From contig DAORIU010000001.1 in assembly GCA_035438645.1 (NCBI GenBank), positions 1-31,681 of the forward strand: 31,681 nucleotides of DNA. Reading direction: 5' to 3'. Positions 5,671-29,480 of the stretch are shown here, in pieces. Origin of the DNA: Minisyncoccota bacterium (GTDB lineage: Bacteria; Patescibacteriota; Minisyncoccia; Phycocordibacterales; UBA9973). Made by a program: the position numbers and the translations under genes. Every line of letters starts with the position of its first letter. The stretch's first letter is position 1. A model generated the notes under the pieces. The model worked only from the letters and a program-made list of their open reading frames with translations. It was not told the origin of the DNA and did no database searches.

Positions 5671-5701
5671 ACAAATAAAGTATAACACTAGTAAATAAAA
5701 A

Positions 5702-5730
5702 AGTCCCCCGATAAGAGGGACTGCTTTTTT
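5702..5730. terminator. Terminator hairpin downstream of the lipoprotein gene
   Basis: agtccc-ccgataaga-gggact flanked by A and T runs. Confidence 0.65.
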
Positions 5731-5742
5731 AGAAAGATCGAT

Positions 5743-6426
5743 TTAATTCTTACTGAACCACCTTTTAACCAACTGGTTGTTGTTGTTGTTGCGAAATTCA
5801 ACAACAAAGGTTTTGTTGTTTAGAAAGGTGATTTTGTCATACGCCTGGTTAGCGAAAACAATACCCTCTCCTACTAAACTCCACTGTCCAGTAGAAATTC
5901 CACCGCCAGGTGCGCATTCACTACCGTAGGTCTTTGTGGTCCCGTCGGGTAAAAATTGGATCGGCAGACAAACCAGACCACTGGTCTGGATTGGGCCTCC
6001 GTCAATCTGGATGGCTGTTAACCGGAAGATTCCGTCTCCAGCCCCTGATTTGAATACTTCAGAAAGCTGAGGAGACCAACAATCAGCGACAACGGTAGTT
6101 TCTGCTGTTTGACCATTTTGACCATGGGCAACCAACTTTACATCTAATGGGCCTGTGACAGAACTAACCGTGTAGCTATTTCCATTAACAACCCCGGGAG
6201 AGGCTGTTACTGAGGTGGCATTGGTCGCTGTTACAGAACCAACCGCATTTTCTCCGTACCACGCCTTTGAGGGAGCAGTAGCAGAAATTTTAGGCTTTGT
6301 TTCAGCGGGAGGGTTTGGTTCAACATGACCGCCACCACCAGCACCACCGGAATTTTTGCCACAAGACACAAATATAAGGATGACGAACACTACGCTCATC
6401 CTCAAAGCGTTTAAAACATTTTTCAT
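5743..6426 (-). CDS. Putative lipoprotein (lipobox FVS-C) with Gly/Pro linker and a lipocalin-like C-terminal beta domain
   Basis: MKNVLNALRMSVVFVILIFVS-CGKNSGGAGGGGHVEPNPP. The start at ATG 6426 is supported by the promoter at 6499-6528, which lies inside the longer ORF call. Confidence 0.65.
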   Translation of the reverse strand: MKNVLNALRMSVVFVILIFVSCGKNSGGAGGGGHVEPNPPAETKPKISATAPSKAWYGENAVGSVTATNATSVTASPGVVNGNSYTVSSVTGPLDVKLVAHGQNGQTAETTVVADCWSPQLSEVFKSGAGDGIFRLTAIQIDGGPIQTSGLVCLPIQFLPDGTTKTYGSECAPGGGISTGQWSLVGEGIVFANQAYDKITFLNNKTFVVEFRNNNNNQLVKRWFSKN

Positions 6427-21182: not shown

Positions 21183-21327
21183 TGGTGCGGGATAAGGGGG
21201 TCGGTCACGAGTATTTTTCTGCTGAAAAATCTCGCTACCCCGCCTCGCGCCAGTCGCGCTCCGGCTTTCTCTTCCCTACCCTCACAAACAAAAACACCCA
21301 GAGAAAGTCTGAGTGTTTTTGTTTGTG
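21183..21327 (-). mobile_element. tRNA-associated structured mini-element ending in a duplicated tRNA-Gly 3' end (att-like)
   Basis: 21186-21203 tgcgggataagggggtcg vs 21328-21345 tgcgggataagggagtcg (17/18 identical); stacked hairpins lie in between. Confidence 0.55.
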
Positions 21328-21398
21328 TGCGGGATAAGGGAGTCGAACCCTTCACCTCAGTTTGGAAAACTGATGTTTTACCGATAAACTAATCCCGC
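21328..21398 (-). tRNA. tRNA-Gly (TCC)
   Basis: GCGGGAT/ATCCCGC acceptor stem, anticodon arm TCAGT-TT TCC AA-ACTGA, T-loop GGTTCGAC; CCA not encoded. Confidence 0.95.
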
Positions 21399-21423
21399 CT
21401 TCGCTAAAGCTTCGGCGGACAGG
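21394..21423. repeat. REP-like short palindrome
   Basis: cccgccttcgctaaagcttcggcggacagg; a related copy occurs in reverse orientation at 23753-23782 (23/30 identical). Confidence 0.55.
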
Positions 21424-21493
21424 CCCGCTAAGCTTTAGTAATTATAATATTTTTTATTAAAAATCTACAACTCTTCTCACCTTCAAAACTGAG

Positions 21494-21564
21494 TCGGGGT
21501 GCCGGGAATCGAACCCGGCCCTCATGTTCCCAAAACATGTATACTACCGATATACTACACCCCG
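21494..21564 (-). tRNA. tRNA-Pro (TGG)
   Basis: CGGGGTG/CACCCCG acceptor stem, anticodon arm CATGT-TT TGG GA-ACATG, T-loop GGTTCGATT; CCA not encoded. Confidence 0.95.
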
Positions 21565-21759
21565 ACTCAGTTTTTAAGATTTAAAGATCGCACACTCCCC
21601 AAAACATATGTTACTACCGATGCTACTGTCTTACCAAGTGAGGGTCATTTATTTTATAAAATGACCGAACGAAGGTTGGACAGAAAGCTCCGCTTACACC
21701 CCGAAAGTGTCTATAACAAAGGACACTATACTATAACTTTGGGTTTTTTACCATAGAAA

Positions 21760-22128
21760 CTAACTTATATCTATCAGCTCTACCTTTGCAGGGCTATCCA
21801 TATCTATCTTTTCTAAGAGCACCACTATCCCCTGCGCATTGTAGTTTTTGATCCCTTTCAAAAGACAGTAGTGCTCTACAGATATAAGAAACTTTCTAAG
21901 CTTTTCTTTTGTTAGGTTTTCAGCCGGATTCATCCAACTCTCCTGCCGGCCAGCCTTAACCTCAAAAAAGTAATGCGCGCCATGTGCCCGAGCTATAATA
22001 TCTATTTCACCAAACTTGTTTGAGAAATTACGCTCCAAAATCACAAACCCGTGCTTGGTCAGAAACTGACAAGCCTTTTCCTCTCCTATTTCTCCTATTT
22101 TCTGAGTTTTTGATGTAAATTGTTTCAC
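21760..22128 (-). CDS. yraN: YraN/UPF0102 family PD-(D/E)XK nuclease-like protein
   Basis: GEIGEEKACQFL...GFVILERNF...GEIDII...FFEVK; GTG start. Confidence 0.9.
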   Translation of the reverse strand: MKQFTSKTQKIGEIGEEKACQFLTKHGFVILERNFSNKFGEIDIIARAHGAHYFFEVKAGRQESWMNPAENLTKEKLRKFLISVEHYCLLKGIKNYNAQGIVVLLEKIDMDSPAKVELIDIS

Positions 22129-22161
22129 GTGAAACTATATTTTTGTGTTTCACCTGAAACA
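22121..22161. promoter_or_regulatory. Tandem parS-like sites
   Basis: TGTTTCACGTGAAACT (22121-22136) and TGTTTCACCTGAAACA (22146-22161), each 15/16 to the consensus TGTTTCACGTGAAACA. Confidence 0.75.
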
Positions 22162-22370
22162 CTAACAAAAGCTTTGATAATAATGATTATTTTATCAAAA
22201 AGACAAAAAGACTACAATTTTATACCCCGCAAAAAGGCGTCGTTTATCCCACTTACGCACACACTTATCCACAGTTTTGTCAAAAAATAGCCCTTTAAAG
22301 GTTCAAAACCCACCAAAAATGCTTTTTGTCTAAAGGACAGTGACTAACAAAAATACAAATCTCTTGCCCT

Positions 22371-22425
22371 ATACAAAAAGCCCGCGTGGATGTTGATAAA
22401 ACTATCTAACGTGGGCTTTTTGTAT
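22371..22425. terminator. Long hairpin/terminator downstream of tRNA-Gly(GCC)
   Basis: atacaaaaagcccgcg ... cgtgggctttttgtat. Confidence 0.7.
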
Positions 22426-22465
22426 TGTAGTGCTGTGCACTGCGAAGCTCAACATGAGCTATAGG

Positions 22466-22536
22466 TGCGGGTACAGGGACTCGAACCCTGGTCTCATTCT
22501 TGGCAAGAACGTATTCTACCCCTAAACCATACCCGC
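22466..22536 (-). tRNA. tRNA-Gly (GCC)
   Basis: GCGGGTA/TACCCGC acceptor stem, anticodon arm CGTTC-TT GCC AA-GAATG, T-loop GGTTCGAG. Confidence 0.95.
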
Positions 22537-22538
22537 AT

Positions 22539-23198
22539 TTATTCAAATTTTTCAAACTGCGCTAAAGACAACCATTTCAAGATTTTCTTTTTTGCAACAG
22601 TACTCGAAATTATACTCATACCTACACCATATTGCAATCTTTTTATTTTTTCCCTACCCTGAATAACCTGAGTTTTATGAAAAATAAGGCCAGAAATAGG
22701 CAATTCTTTGGACCAAACCTCCTTGCATACAGCTTCATTATTATCTTCATACAAAATAAGCCCAAATCTAAAGCTATTTTCAGGTATTTTGAGGTATTTT
22801 TGAGCAAAATTCACAAATATACGATGTATATAAAAATCCGTATTGCTAATACGCACCAATTCCTTACTTTTCCTATCGCCCTCCCCTGCATAAAGCATTA
22901 ACCCTGCCCAAAACAATGGTTCATTTTTATATAGCTCATATTCCTCCTGTGCTTCTTTTTCAACTAGAGCATACTGGTACTGAAGCTTTAACTTGCGCAC
23001 CAAATTCATCCGCTCCATACGCTCTTTTGAGGCTCCCAGGTTTTTCTTTGCATGTTCCAAAGATAGGTGCTTGGACCAATCTTGATCTTTAAACCACAAA
23101 GAAAGTGTTGCACGTGAAACTCCTGTATCGCGCTGTATTTCGCGATATGTCCTGCCTTCTTTACGTAACTGGAATATTCTTTCTTTGTCCTGTCTCAT
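22539..23198 (-). CDS. HTH plus LAGLIDADG-like endonuclease-fold protein
   Basis: N-terminal HTH (LRKEGRTYREIQRDTGVSRATLSLW), then LFWAGLMLYAGEGDRK, VRISNTD and YGV. Start is probably ATG 23198; the stop is 2 nt from the tRNA 5' end. Confidence 0.7.
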   Translation of the reverse strand: MRQDKERIFQLRKEGRTYREIQRDTGVSRATLSLWFKDQDWSKHLSLEHAKKNLGASKERMERMNLVRKLKLQYQYALVEKEAQEEYELYKNEPLFWAGLMLYAGEGDRKSKELVRISNTDFYIHRIFVNFAQKYLKIPENSFRFGLILYEDNNEAVCKEVWSKELPISGLIFHKTQVIQGREKIKRLQYGVGMSIISSTVAKKKILKWLSLAQFEKFE

Positions 23199-23264
23199 CC
23201 TATACAAGTATAATACGTCGGTTTAATTTTACAAATAGCCTATAAAATAGTACTATCTAAGTAC

Positions 23265-23336
23265 GCACCCGTGGTGAAATGGATATCATTCCGGTCTTCG
23301 GAACCGTCGTTCCAGGTTCGAATCCTGGCGGGTGCA
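23265..23336 (+). tRNA. tRNA-Arg (TCG)
   Basis: GCACCCG/CGGGTGC acceptor stem, anticodon loop CT TCG GA, T arm CCAGG-TTCGAAT-CCTGG; CCA not encoded. Confidence 0.93.
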
Positions 23337-23479
23337 CAAACGGTACGCAGAAGGCAAACTGCTTTGCCTTCGAAGCGTTTTGCAAGGCGCAGGCATGTAC
23401 GAAGTACAGCCGAGCCGGGGTCGCAAACACTTTGCAGAATTGGAGCAAAGCGAACAATTATGCTTAGTGATTTGTGACC
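23337..23479 (+). repeat. Second copy of the tRNA-trailing structured element
   Basis: Hairpin gaaggcaaa-ctgc-tttgccttc, then AAGGCGCAG-[hairpin]-GAGCCGGGGTCGCAAA...TTTGTGACC, the same scaffold as the element behind tRNA-Gly(TCC). Confidence 0.55.
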
Positions 23480-23501
23480 ACTATTACGCTACACTACTAT
23501 C

Positions 23502-25016
23502 ATGAACACTAAAACTATCCCTTCATTTGTTTCACATGTAACACAAAGGCTTCAAGAAGCCGGTTTTGAAGCATACCTTGTTGGTGGCTGTGTTAGAGAT
23601 CTTTTGACCGCCAGAGTACCTAAAGACTGGGATGTCACAACAAATGCTAAGCCAGAAGAAATACAGAATGTTTTCAAAGACCTCAAAAATGTTTACGAAA
23701 ACAACTTTGGAACAGTCACAGTTGTTAATATTACCCCAGATAGAGCTTCACGCTTGTCCTCTGAAGCCTTGGCGAAGGAGGATGAAACACCCAAAGAAGA
23801 GGTTCAGGTGACTACATACCGATCAGAGGCCGGTTATTCAGACAATAGGCGTCCAGATAGTGTTTCATATGAAACACTACTAGAAAAAGACCTCGAAAGA
23901 CGTGATTTTACTATGAACGCTATCGCATATGACCCTATAAAAGACAGTATAAAGGACATATTTGGAGGTATAAAGGACATAAAAGACAAAAGTATAAAAT
24001 GTGTCCTTGATCCAGATACACGCTTCGGAGAAGACGCACTACGCATCATGAGAGCTATAAGGTTTTCCACAACTTTGGGTTTTTCTATAGAAAACGCTAC
24101 ATTTGAAGCCATCCTCAAAAAAGCGGACTCTATAACAAATATCTCTGCCGAAAGAGTGCGTGATGAATTTATGAAAATAATAGACTCTAATGCTCCAGCA
24201 GTAGGAATAGATATGCTCCAGAAAACTGGGCTTTTGAAACATATCATCCCTGAACTAGAAGAGGGCATAGGTTGTGACCAAAAAGGTGCTCACATATACG
24301 ACGTCTACCAGCACTTGTTACACGCTCTGCAACACTCTGCCGACAAAGGCTTTTCTCGTGCTATACGTCTTTCGGCTCTTTTTCATGACATCGGCAAGCC
24401 GGCCACACGTAGATACGATGCCAAGAAAGACAAATACACCTTTTTTGGTCATGAGGTAGTAGGGGCTCGTATGACCAAAAAGATCCTAGAGAGGCTCAAG
24501 GTTGATCGTGGTACAGCGGATTTGGTAGTTTCACTAGTGCGAAATCACATGTTTTTCTCTGATACTGAACAAATAACACTTTCAGCGGTTAGAAGAATTA
24601 TTCAAAAGGTTGGACCAGAACATATTTGGGAGCTTATGCAGGTGCGTGAATCTGACAGGGTAGGGATGAAAAAGGCCGAAGCTCCATATAGACTACGCAA
24701 ATACCACGCGATGATCGACGAAGCACTCAGAGATCCTATATCGGTTTCACAGCTTGCTATAGATGGTACCTACCTTATGGAACAGTTACACATGAAACCA
24801 GGACCTCGTATGGGCTGGATTCTTCACGCACTCCTTGAAGAAGTCCTCGAAGACCCCTCGCTCAATACCGTAGAAAAACTGACAGGGCGAGTAAAAGACC
24901 TGGACGAGCTTGAAGATAAAGACCTAAAAACGCTAGGGGAGAAAGGTAAGGATAAAAAGGAAAATCTAGACCAAGAAGAGGTGAAGAAACTCAGAAGTAA
25001 GCACAATGTAAAATAA
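23502..25016 (+). CDS. cca: Class II CCA-adding tRNA nucleotidyltransferase with HD domain
   Basis: VGGCVRD, DWDVTT, RRDFTMNA, RFGEDALRIMRAIRF, ERVRDE, ALFHDIGKP, HEVVGA. The four tRNAs here lack an encoded CCA, which favours a CCA-adding role over poly(A) polymerase. Confidence 0.9.
   Translation: MNTKTIPSFVSHVTQRLQEAGFEAYLVGGCVRDLLTARVPKDWDVTTNAKPEEIQNVFKDLKNVYENNFGTVTVVNITPDRASRLSSEALAKEDETPKEEVQVTTYRSEAGYSDNRRPDSVSYETLLEKDLERRDFTMNAIAYDPIKDSIKDIFGGIKDIKDKSIKCVLDPDTRFGEDALRIMRAIRFSTTLGFSIENATFEAILKKADSITNISAERVRDEFMKIIDSNAPAVGIDMLQKTGLLKHIIPELEEGIGCDQKGAHIYDVYQHLLHALQHSADKGFSRAIRLSALFHDIGKPATRRYDAKKDKYTFFGHEVVGARMTKKILERLKVDRGTADLVVSLVRNHMFFSDTEQITLSAVRRIIQKVGPEHIWELMQVRESDRVGMKKAEAPYRLRKYHAMIDEALRDPISVSQLAIDGTYLMEQLHMKPGPRMGWILHALLEEVLEDPSLNTVEKLTGRVKDLDELEDKDLKTLGEKGKDKKENLDQEEVKKLRSKHNVK
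23753..23782 (-). repeat. REP-like palindrome inside the cca coding sequence
   Basis: Reverse complement tcctccttcgccaaggcttcagaggacaag; the plus strand encodes (R)LSSEALAKED. Confidence 0.55.
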
Positions 25017-28565: not shown

Positions 28566-29480
28566 TTATCTTTTGCTATGAAACCTCTTGTGTACGTCAC
28601 GAAGTTGTTTGTCTGTCACATGGGTATATACCTGAGTTGTCGCAATATTTGCGTGCCCAAGCATCATTTGCACAGAACGAATATCAGCGCCATTTGAAAG
28701 GAGATCGGTAGCAAAAGAGTGGCGAAGTACGTGAGGAGTAACCTTTTTGGAAATACCAGCTTTGATAGCATAGTGCTTTACGATGCGCTCGATAGAACGG
28801 GGAGTAAGTCTGCGATCTGCGCGACTAACACCGTTGATAGCTACATCGACAAACATTGGCTCATCCATATCTTTGCGGGCCTTGAGATAAGACTTGATGG
28901 CTTCTTTGGCATCCTCAGAAAGGAAAACCACACGCACTTTTTCACCTTTTCCACGGATAGAGAATTCATCTTTGGAAAGATCTAGATCTCTATTTAGTGA
29001 GCAAAGCTCAGACAAACGAAGACCTGTAGAGAAAAATAATTCTATCAAAGCTTTGTCTCTCAAGCCTTTGAGTGTAGCGGTGTCTGGAGCTTTAAGTAGT
29101 CGAGAGAGTTCGTCAGTAGAGATGAGGTCAAGGTGTCTTGCGCCTGTTTTGGCAAGCTCTATAACATCAGGAGAGGTAGCAGAGATATTTCTCTTTTTGC
29201 AAAACTTCAAAAAGCTTCGTAGCGCTATCATATAATAGTTTTGAGTGTTTTTTTTCATAGTACCAGCAGACTGACCGCGTACTTTGACCCCTGGAGCACG
29301 GTTAAGCTTGAGGCGAAACTCGCGCAAGATGTCTTCAGAAATATCTCCCACACTTTTGATACTCATGTCGAGCGCAAAACGAGAAAGATAGTGATCATAA
29401 TTTTCAACAGTCTTGAGACTTCGCCCTTTTTCTATTTCTATATATTCTAGAAACTGCCTTTTGGCATCATTAAATAGCAT
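28566..29480 (-). CDS. XerC/XerD-family tyrosine recombinase
   Basis: SAM-like N-domain (SLKTVENY), [54 protein letters not shown] (R-K-H-R-H-Y all present). Confidence 0.95.

Follow-up and report, generated by a model that had tools for sequence, protein, structure and literature searches.

What are the two structured stretches of about 140 nt that trail two different transfer RNA (tRNA) genes in the genome of a member of the order Phycocordibacterales? The question arises from 31,681 nucleotides of DNA, here called the window, of a Minisyncoccota bacterium (UBA9973; assembly GCA_035438645.1, contig DAORIU010000001.1, positions 1 to 31,681). An initial annotation, made from the letters of the window, had placed a tRNA-Gly(TCC) and a tRNA-Arg(TCG) there, each followed by a hairpin and then by the same scaffold, and had proposed that they belong to a family, either of non-autonomous elements targeting tRNAs or of structured RNAs. 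ARAGORN, Rfam and the predicted folds bear out this layout, and comparison with 61 genomes of the order supports both halves of the proposal, pointing to inserted DNA that moves horizontally and to a strand-specific fold. The reading toward which we lean, on balance, is that of a selfish or semi-domesticated insertion cassette, the core of which works as an RNA issued from the tRNA transcription unit, and which moves by means of housekeeping functions. The cassette measures 110-200 nt and codes for no protein.

The motif GAGSCGGGGTNGC is found twice in the window, compared with 0.04 occurrences expected from shuffles, and seven times in the 520-kb genome to which the window belongs (G000; G numbers denote genomes). 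A covariance model built from these seven motif-bearing copies, R1, adds an eighth copy in the same genome. All eight are located 31-120 nt 3' of a tRNA gene and on its strand, the hosts being Arg-TCG, Gly-TCC, Lys-TTT, Val-TAC, His, Leu-TAA, Tyr and one tRNA cut by a contig end. Within the order R1 returns more than 250 matches, distributed over 46 of the 61 genomes and 20 of the 25 genera, and hosted by at least 20 tRNA species as well as by the transfer-messenger RNA (tmRNA); about a quarter of the tRNAs carry the element and 15 of the genomes are without it. An even draw of 150 other genomes across the phylum gave R1 matches in only five, and this core is essentially confined to the order. 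Among 106 copies fetched for inspection, about 74 have a same-strand tRNA no more than 250 nt upstream and at least 13 more lie 3' of the tmRNA end (..CATCTCCAC), about 85% thus being positioned 3' of a tRNA or tmRNA on the same strand, while the remainder are mostly cut by contig ends or represent second units in tandem stacks. The family suggested by two copies is in this way extended to hundreds, and its enrichment at tRNA 3' ends is extreme. Besides the tRNAs, neither stretch has a match in Rfam 15 at the gathering threshold or at E ≤ 10, which agrees with the initial annotation in finding no named family, and no description was found in the full-text literature; the cassette family appears to be uncatalogued.

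The two window copies differ in their make-up. The first is hosted by tRNA-Gly(TCC) at 21327-21398 on the minus strand (ARAGORN; 66.6 bits with the Rfam tRNA model), the last ~20 nt of which are here termed S1. Directly 3' of it, at 21283-21326 (-), stands a perfect 19-bp hairpin of the terminator type (A-tract, stem and T-tract; the fold of the 147-nt segment has z = -7.9), followed at 21268-21282 (-) by a degenerate antisense arm, AGGGTAGGGAAGAGA, predicted by folding to pair both with the 3' end of the tRNA-Gly and with the spare copy described next. A miniature core of 65 nt occupies 21203-21267 (-; R1 48.9 bits, E = 5e-10), with helices P2 (21263-21265 with 21242-21244), P3 (21247-21259) and P4 (21203-21239), and orthologues of identical length and format are present in G033 and G020. 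The copy ends at 21183-21202 (-) with S2, a spare direct copy of the tRNA-Gly from the T-loop to the 3' end, which holds a 14-nt exact match to the tRNA end and is followed by an encoded CCA. In G007 the orthologous arm is fuller, comprising a first arm, a hairpin with a CUGC loop and a second arm, and in G019 the same 19-bp hairpin is placed after the spare copy instead. The Gly copy is best described as a miniaturised long copy, with its short core, degenerate arm and S2 then CCA. The second copy is hosted by tRNA-Arg(TCG) at 23265-23337 (+; ARAGORN and Rfam). Here a 46-nt hairpin of the class B form (23338-23383, +), the base of which takes in the last bases of the tRNA-Arg and the inner perfect stem of which (23350-23371) carries a CUGC tetraloop, leads into a full-size core at 23384-23479 (+). 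This core scores 90.7 bits with R1, shows covariation and folds better in the sense than in the antisense direction; its helices are P2 (23386-23388 with 23414-23416), P3 (23392-23411) and P4 (23419-23479). R1 returns exactly the core boundaries that had been drawn by the initial annotation.

Is the scaffold maintained as a fold? In an alignment of 104 distinct copies, which was fitted to the model and somewhat favours structure, 96.4% of the cells in P2, P3 and P4 are paired, as against 80% in shuffles and 28-40% when slid, and double-sided changes are found at 14 of 18 pairs (311 cells). The compensatory swap noticed between the two window copies (GCC/GGC versus GGC/GCC) corresponds to pair 5:86, which reads GC in 41 copies, CG in 33, AU in 17 and UA in 4, and the covariation claimed for the terminal stem recurs at its base (pair 98:208, GC 59 and AU 41; pair 99:206, UA 46, CG 35 and AU 22). 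The core follows the plan AAG-S-C-G-S-A, P3, GAG-S-C-GG, and P4 with a GTGACC end. Invariant features are a G.U pair (100/104 copies) and a bulged A in P4, and A10, G83-A84 and G88-G89 at the junction. In 102 of the 104 copies the tRNA-sense strand has a better fold than its antisense counterpart, and it holds 231 G.U pairs versus 44, showing that the core structure is used by a single strand, that of the tRNA sense, and is selected in this form. No such strand asymmetry is seen in the tRNA-proximal hairpin (31/63). The core behaves as a strand-specific folded single strand, most simply an RNA.

What surrounds the core goes beyond the initial annotation, as it comprises the antisense arms, the Gly spare copy at 21183-21202, the tmRNA hosts, two architectural classes, and a hairpin at a constant distance from the core. 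This hairpin is long, nearly perfect and usually closed by a CUGC tetraloop, and in 62 of 71 copies the distance from CUGC to core is 20-24 nt. Elements of the family bear one or two antisense arms. In short copies, of the Arg type, the distance from tRNA to core is 43-48 nt (n = 26) and the hairpin stands directly 3' of the tRNA, its outermost pairs being formed by the tRNA's last 3-6 bases (..GCAC) and their complement; a long S2 is lacking. In long copies, of the Gly type, the order is a terminator-type hairpin, arm 1, the CUGC hairpin, arm 2, the core and S2. Arm 1 is the exact Watson-Crick complement of the 3' strand of the acceptor stem, arm 2 that of the 3' strand of the T-stem together with the T-loop (..GGAATCGA), and S2 is a direct copy of the last ~19 nt of the tRNA, starting from T-loop position 57. 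S2 is specific for its cognate tRNA, 32 of 64 copies exceeding the 99th percentile of non-cognate scores (p = 2e-15). At wobble positions arm 1 follows the complement of the 3' strand rather than the 5' strand of the tRNA (12 versus 1), and for this reason the arms were rejected as leftovers of a tandem duplication of the tRNA. The arms moreover fit the real tRNA end, S1, better than they fit S2 (28 versus 2), S2 decaying while the arms keep their match.

Direct repeats of a tRNA 3' end that begin in the T-loop are the classical footprint of integration by tyrosine integrases. The repeat seen in the Gly copy could accordingly be taken for a scar, that is, an attL or attR remnant, similar to those of cis-mobilizable elements (CIMEs), left by integrase-bearing islands or phages in tRNA genes and mostly deleted since. 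We hold this to be very improbable. The same covarying core accompanies eight different tRNAs within a single genome and, taking all genomes, more than 20 tRNA species; a selected fold is not something that scars would have in common, and the short copies have no repeat. No integrase was found in the 61 genomes beyond a single Xer type, blastn against phage and plasmid collections found nothing, and two exact-pattern scans of IMG/VR returned chance matches only.

The two classes differ in the evidence for an RNA product. Two wastewater metatranscriptome runs hold the locus from a strain of ~96% identity, and with summed contig word depth per bin as the measure, the bin of the Gly core and S2 reaches 1384 and 1005, compared with 80 and 55 for the flanking genes; the tRNA-Gly bin itself stands at 320 and 397. 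Two DNA runs show no depth excess over the Gly core. Words of the 105-nt Gly element are also present in RNA runs from at least six further studies, and the surrounding 3.5-kb stretch in the RNA of one study only. An abundant RNA from the Gly-type copy is thereby supported, not proven.

Has the element been inserted, or has it always trailed these tRNAs? The junction between tRNA-Arg and the gene of the CCA-adding enzyme (cca) is occupied in three genomes of the genus (G000, G018 and G012), empty in 19, where just 16-50 nt separate the tRNA from the cca start codon, and in one (G004) reduced to the last 18 nt of the core, a deletion scar. In a tree of the CCA-adding enzyme the three carriers fall into three separate supported clades with empty sisters, and three changes are required by the supported branches. 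At this site G000 and G018 agree at 46 of 46 positions of the hairpin and at 92 of 96 of the core, whereas the flanking genes are 65-69% and the spacers 73-77% identical. The reverse pattern is seen behind tRNA-Val, where G000 and G029 have identical tRNAs and flanks that are 90-100% identical, but differ at ~45% of hairpin-stem positions, perfectly compensated, and in a replaced P3. The tRNA-Gly(TCC) site is empty in 13 congeners, and where it is occupied at least three variants of the core are found. What follows S2 in G005 is orthologous to the stretch directly 3' of the tRNA in the empty G031, native terminator included, which indicates a clean insertion of ~160 nt with a 19-nt direct repeat. 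Identical hairpins are furthermore found behind different tRNAs (Lys in G020 and Leu in G000; Leu-GAG in G009 and Tyr in G027 and G034), implying that modules have been exchanged between loci. Read from these site comparisons, the element is shown to be inserted DNA that is bounded by a directly repeated tRNA end, to have been gained or lost at the same site within one genus, and to have a history decoupled from its flanks.

These data bear directly on an alternative that we consider improbable, namely that the element is a non-mobile tRNA-trailer RNA of benefit to the host, either an ancient small RNA or a cis-acting module for processing or termination, inherited vertically, repeatedly lost by recombination between S1 and S2, and with its arms kept by selection or by palindrome correction. 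Such a trailer would fit the strong covariation and the invariant nucleotides, the arms that are still complementary to S1 in old copies, the RNA evidence, the deletion scar in G004, the occurrence of the element behind the same tRNAs in different families of the order, and the precedent of RtT, a processed RNA. It is at odds with the distribution of the three occupied Arg sites, each in a clade of its own whose sisters are empty, with an element that is 96-100% identical where the flanking genes are 65-69% identical, with the reverse pattern at the Val site and with the identical hairpins behind different tRNAs. The 15 genomes without the element, and the fact that only about a quarter of tRNAs carry it, also speak against it.

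If the cassette moves, by which enzyme? The initial annotation had suggested that a trans-acting nuclease or recombinase might mobilise or process it; this part of the proposal has found no candidate that tracks the element. An all-against-all comparison of open reading frames in 30 loci of 3 kb recovered only syntenic host genes and no linked protein gene. Reverse transcriptases are present in 26 of the 61 genomes (19 of 46 element-positive, 7 of 15 negative) and show no correlation with the element; none is found in G000. Two relatives have a reverse transcriptase gene of ~350 aa within 0.2-1.3 kb of an element copy (G055, contig C2, 77780-78640; G011, contig C1, 152532-154645), a proximity that, in view of the missing overall association, is probably due to chance. 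CCA stands after S2 in 5 of 26 copies and after S1 in 3 of 26, which is no CCA enrichment. A retroelement (retron, group II intron, or an element similar to short interspersed elements) was rejected on the grounds that reverse transcriptase is uncorrelated and spare copies are not CCA-enriched. The IS110 recombinase (PF01548) is above cut-off in none of the 61 genomes, and an IS110 bridge RNA was rejected, as moreover the antisense arm and the sense copy correspond to the same stretch of target. The Y1 transposase (PF01797), in 28 of 61 genomes, is likewise uncorrelated with the element, being absent from G000 (8 copies) and from G028, G041, G057 and G047 (6-10 each) and present in the element-free G006, G043 and G046; palindrome-associated transposable elements (PATEs) of the IS200/IS605 type and repetitive extragenic palindromes (REPs) with their REP-associated tyrosine transposases (RAYTs) were rejected, since Y1 does not track the element. 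Some relatives, for instance G053, G006, G046 and G022, have multi-copy Y1_Tnp reading frames of about 220-250 aa that resemble HUH transposases or RAYTs. Ro60/TROVE (PF05731) occurs in one of the 61 genomes, an element-free one, and a bacterial Y RNA (YrlA) was rejected as well. What is near-universal is one strong Xer-type tyrosine recombinase (Phage_integrase) per genome, in 58 of 61, encoded in the window at 28608-29123 (-).

The single recombinase gives room to a further alternative, in which the element is a folded single-stranded DNA recombination site and moves in single-stranded form. The helix formed by the arms and the tRNA end would recreate the double-stranded 3' end of the tRNA gene, as in integron attC sites and in attP(+) of phage CTX, and the Xer-type recombinase would insert the cassette in the T-loop/acceptor region. 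Several features suit such a site: the strand-specific fold with its conserved extrahelical A's and its structure kept over sequence, a direct repeat beginning at a fixed T-loop position, an element history decoupled from the flanks, and exactly one tyrosine recombinase in 58 of 61 genomes with no other candidate enzyme that tracks the element. C-GNA-G triloops, found in 25 of 104 P3 stems, and GCGAAGC mini-hairpins, also seen in the family, are typical of stable DNA hairpins. The hairpin arms are, however, unconserved in sequence, and a sequence-specific recombinase would therefore find no evident arms to bind. The known elements that exploit Xer are inserted at dif and not at tRNA genes, contigs from RNA libraries pile up on the Gly copy, and no circle or junction was observed. 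Taken together we judge this alternative to be quite unlikely.

How then might a cassette of the kind we favour, gene-less and retained in the genome, operate? Both stretches would be resident insertion cassettes specialised for the 3' ends of tRNA and tmRNA genes, presumably transcribed with the tRNA or just after it. The helix between the arms and the tRNA end could imitate the acceptor/T-arm stack of a tRNA, and through this mimicry tRNA-processing enzymes may release a stable small RNA, in the way reported for RtT of Escherichia coli. Spread without an enzyme of its own could be provided by the single Xer-type recombinase, by RecA, or by fold-back or template-switch copying on the tRNA-end repeats. 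A bolder version, which we rate as rather unlikely, would make it an enzyme-less mobile element in its own right, that is, an RNA or DNA strand of ~150 nt whose arms rebuild the top half of the target tRNA, which hijacks tRNA-maturation enzymes or Xer to be excised and inserted behind tRNA genes, and for which fold-back copying of the tRNA end writes new targets; RtT would be a fossil of the same principle.

Several observations weigh against the favoured interpretation of an insertion cassette with a working RNA core. Neither an excised or circular form nor a mobilising enzyme was seen in the data searched, and we infer mobility from comparisons between genomes alone. In a read-level search for empty or excised forms the joints 21203 to 21326 and 23337 to 23512 were obtained, with the intervening letters unread, and are hence not interpretable. 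The Arg core has no RNA excess (65 versus 45-72) by a measure in which contig depths sum over organisms, making it a poor measure of expression, and expression of the short copies is doubtful. The asymmetry in G.U pairs cannot tell RNA from single-stranded DNA. As the arms fit S1 better than S2, a closed tRNA-like fold via S2 is not what old copies conserve, which weakens it as the feature under selection. Nor does the interpretation account for the way in which a long copy comes to bear arms matched to a new tRNA. Finally, the hairpin precedes the core and resembles a terminator: by eye the hairpins, that of the Gly copy included, have the A-tract, GC stem and T-tract, although a consensus terminator scan makes no call, the T-tract being paired inside an extended stem.

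Some further features of the family and of the window stand apart from these questions. A second module, GTCGA(optional hairpin)GGGAGATAAGY followed by another copy of the tRNA end, trails the His copy, the copy at the end of contig C8 and locus L017; in the genome of the window it is located at 8549-8625 of contig C13 (L002) and around 5700-5787 (-) of contig C8 (L001). A third motif, TACTGTTCYYGTARGGAAAGATTCC, is common to loci L021 and L018, and L021 is a tandem in which the first unit has a different core. Across the genus, in class A and class B copies, the discriminator is followed in almost all tRNA genes by CA(A/T/C) and not by a full CCA, and spare copies retain the same two bases after the discriminator as the host tRNA genes. 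At the Arg site the host flank outside the element is a short spacer (23480-23501, +) with a -10-like box of cca, which starts with ATG at 23502 (Pfam). The final hexamer of the core, GTGACC, lies 18 nt before the TATCAT that abuts this start codon (23474-23503, +), giving a promoter-like match GTGACC-18-TATCAT in which the core end stands at -35 distance; the element may thus give a leaderless cca a -35-like box. The spacing from GTGACC to the box is the same in the carriers G018 and G012.

In the neighbourhood of the Gly copy, the leader and trailer of tRNA-Pro(TGG) are complementary (21493-21575, -; ACTGAGT ... ACTCAGT), and their pairing in the precursor would lengthen the acceptor stem by ~7 bp. 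The intact tRNA-Pro is closely preceded by a fragment similar to its own D-arm and anticodon arm (21592-21632, -; ..GTAGCATCGGTAGTAACATATGTTTTGGGGAG..), the bin of which has raised depths of 558 and 423 in the RNA runs. Between tRNA-Gly and tRNA-Pro a REP-like palindrome, ccttcgctaaagcttcggcgg..ccgctaagctttag, is found at 21394-21440, and in a strain of the RNA runs this spacer holds 33 other letters instead. Hairpins with the related CGCTAAAGCTTCGCGG occupy the gap between tRNA-Arg and cca in G020, G008 and G002, in the place of the element. Between tRNA-Gly(GCC) and tRNA-Arg, at 22539-23207 (-), an open reading frame of 222 aa with only a weak N-terminal HTH_23 match in Pfam recurs in G018 at 65% nucleotide identity and is absent at that site in G031, G021 and G006; this reading frame, too, is an insertion polymorphism.

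In the tiny, gene-dense genomes of Patescibacteria classical mobile DNA is almost absent, and yet this cassette is found at as many as a quarter of the tRNA genes. If the favoured interpretation is true, it shows a parasite or helper of ~150 nt persisting and moving without a gene of its own, and the tyrT/RtT repeat of E. coli, a puzzle for 45 years, could for the first time be approached by comparison. In practical terms the cassette represents an insertion module that is matched to its target and defined by its structure, a source, so far unannotated, of abundant small RNA in metatranscriptomes, and a cause of contig breaks and of mis-called 'att sites' in genome bins of the candidate phyla radiation (CPR).

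Among known systems, integrative elements reportedly use the 3' ends of tRNA and tmRNA genes as attB, with a T-loop sublocation. The cassette shares with them and with CIMEs a direct repeat of the tRNA end starting from the T-loop, an intact tRNA, empty and occupied sites and tandem stacks. Unlike them it measures only 110-200 nt, lacks cargo and integrase, and possesses a conserved core with a fold and, inside the element, the target sequence in antisense; its short copies have no repeat. With integron attC sites and CTX-phage attP(+) it has in common a structure kept over sequence, variable lengths, a strand-specific fold and conserved bulged bases, and the host tyrosine recombinase is the only ubiquitous candidate enzyme. 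It differs from these in having no IntI/attI context and no dif-like target; an R/L box consensus was not seen by eye, and RNA evidence exists. The bridge RNAs of IS110 and the seekRNAs are also structured non-coding units with segments that match a DNA target, but the sense and antisense segments of the cassette both correspond to one stretch of the target and are mutually complementary, instead of representing adjacent halves of the target.

Closest is RtT (RF00391, rttR). In the trailer of tyrT-tyrV the last 19 nt of each 178-bp unit are a sense copy of the tRNA-Tyr 3' end from the T-loop (AATCCTTCCCCCACCACCA), and a 10-nt antisense segment (GGGGAAGGAT) ~100 nt upstream pairs with this copy, closing a GC-rich fold of multiple hairpins. 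RtT is reportedly released from the tRNA transcript by processing, its function being said not to be known. RtT and the cassette each have a tRNA gene immediately 5' of them and in the same orientation, and the terminal direct copy of the tRNA end with an internal antisense segment is reproduced by the Gly copy, the Arg copy having only 3-6 nt of it. The RF00391 model has no match in the window at E ≤ 10, and R1 gives no more than 4.7 bits on the rttR locus. RtT is moreover restricted to one tRNA in enterobacteria, forms tandem repeats and overlaps a small open reading frame (tpr), whereas the cassette follows more than 20 tRNA species and the tmRNA, has its antisense arm split around the CUGC hairpin and shows insertion polymorphism. 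We regard RtT as the closest known system and as an architectural analogue of the cassette, rather than as a demonstrated homologue.

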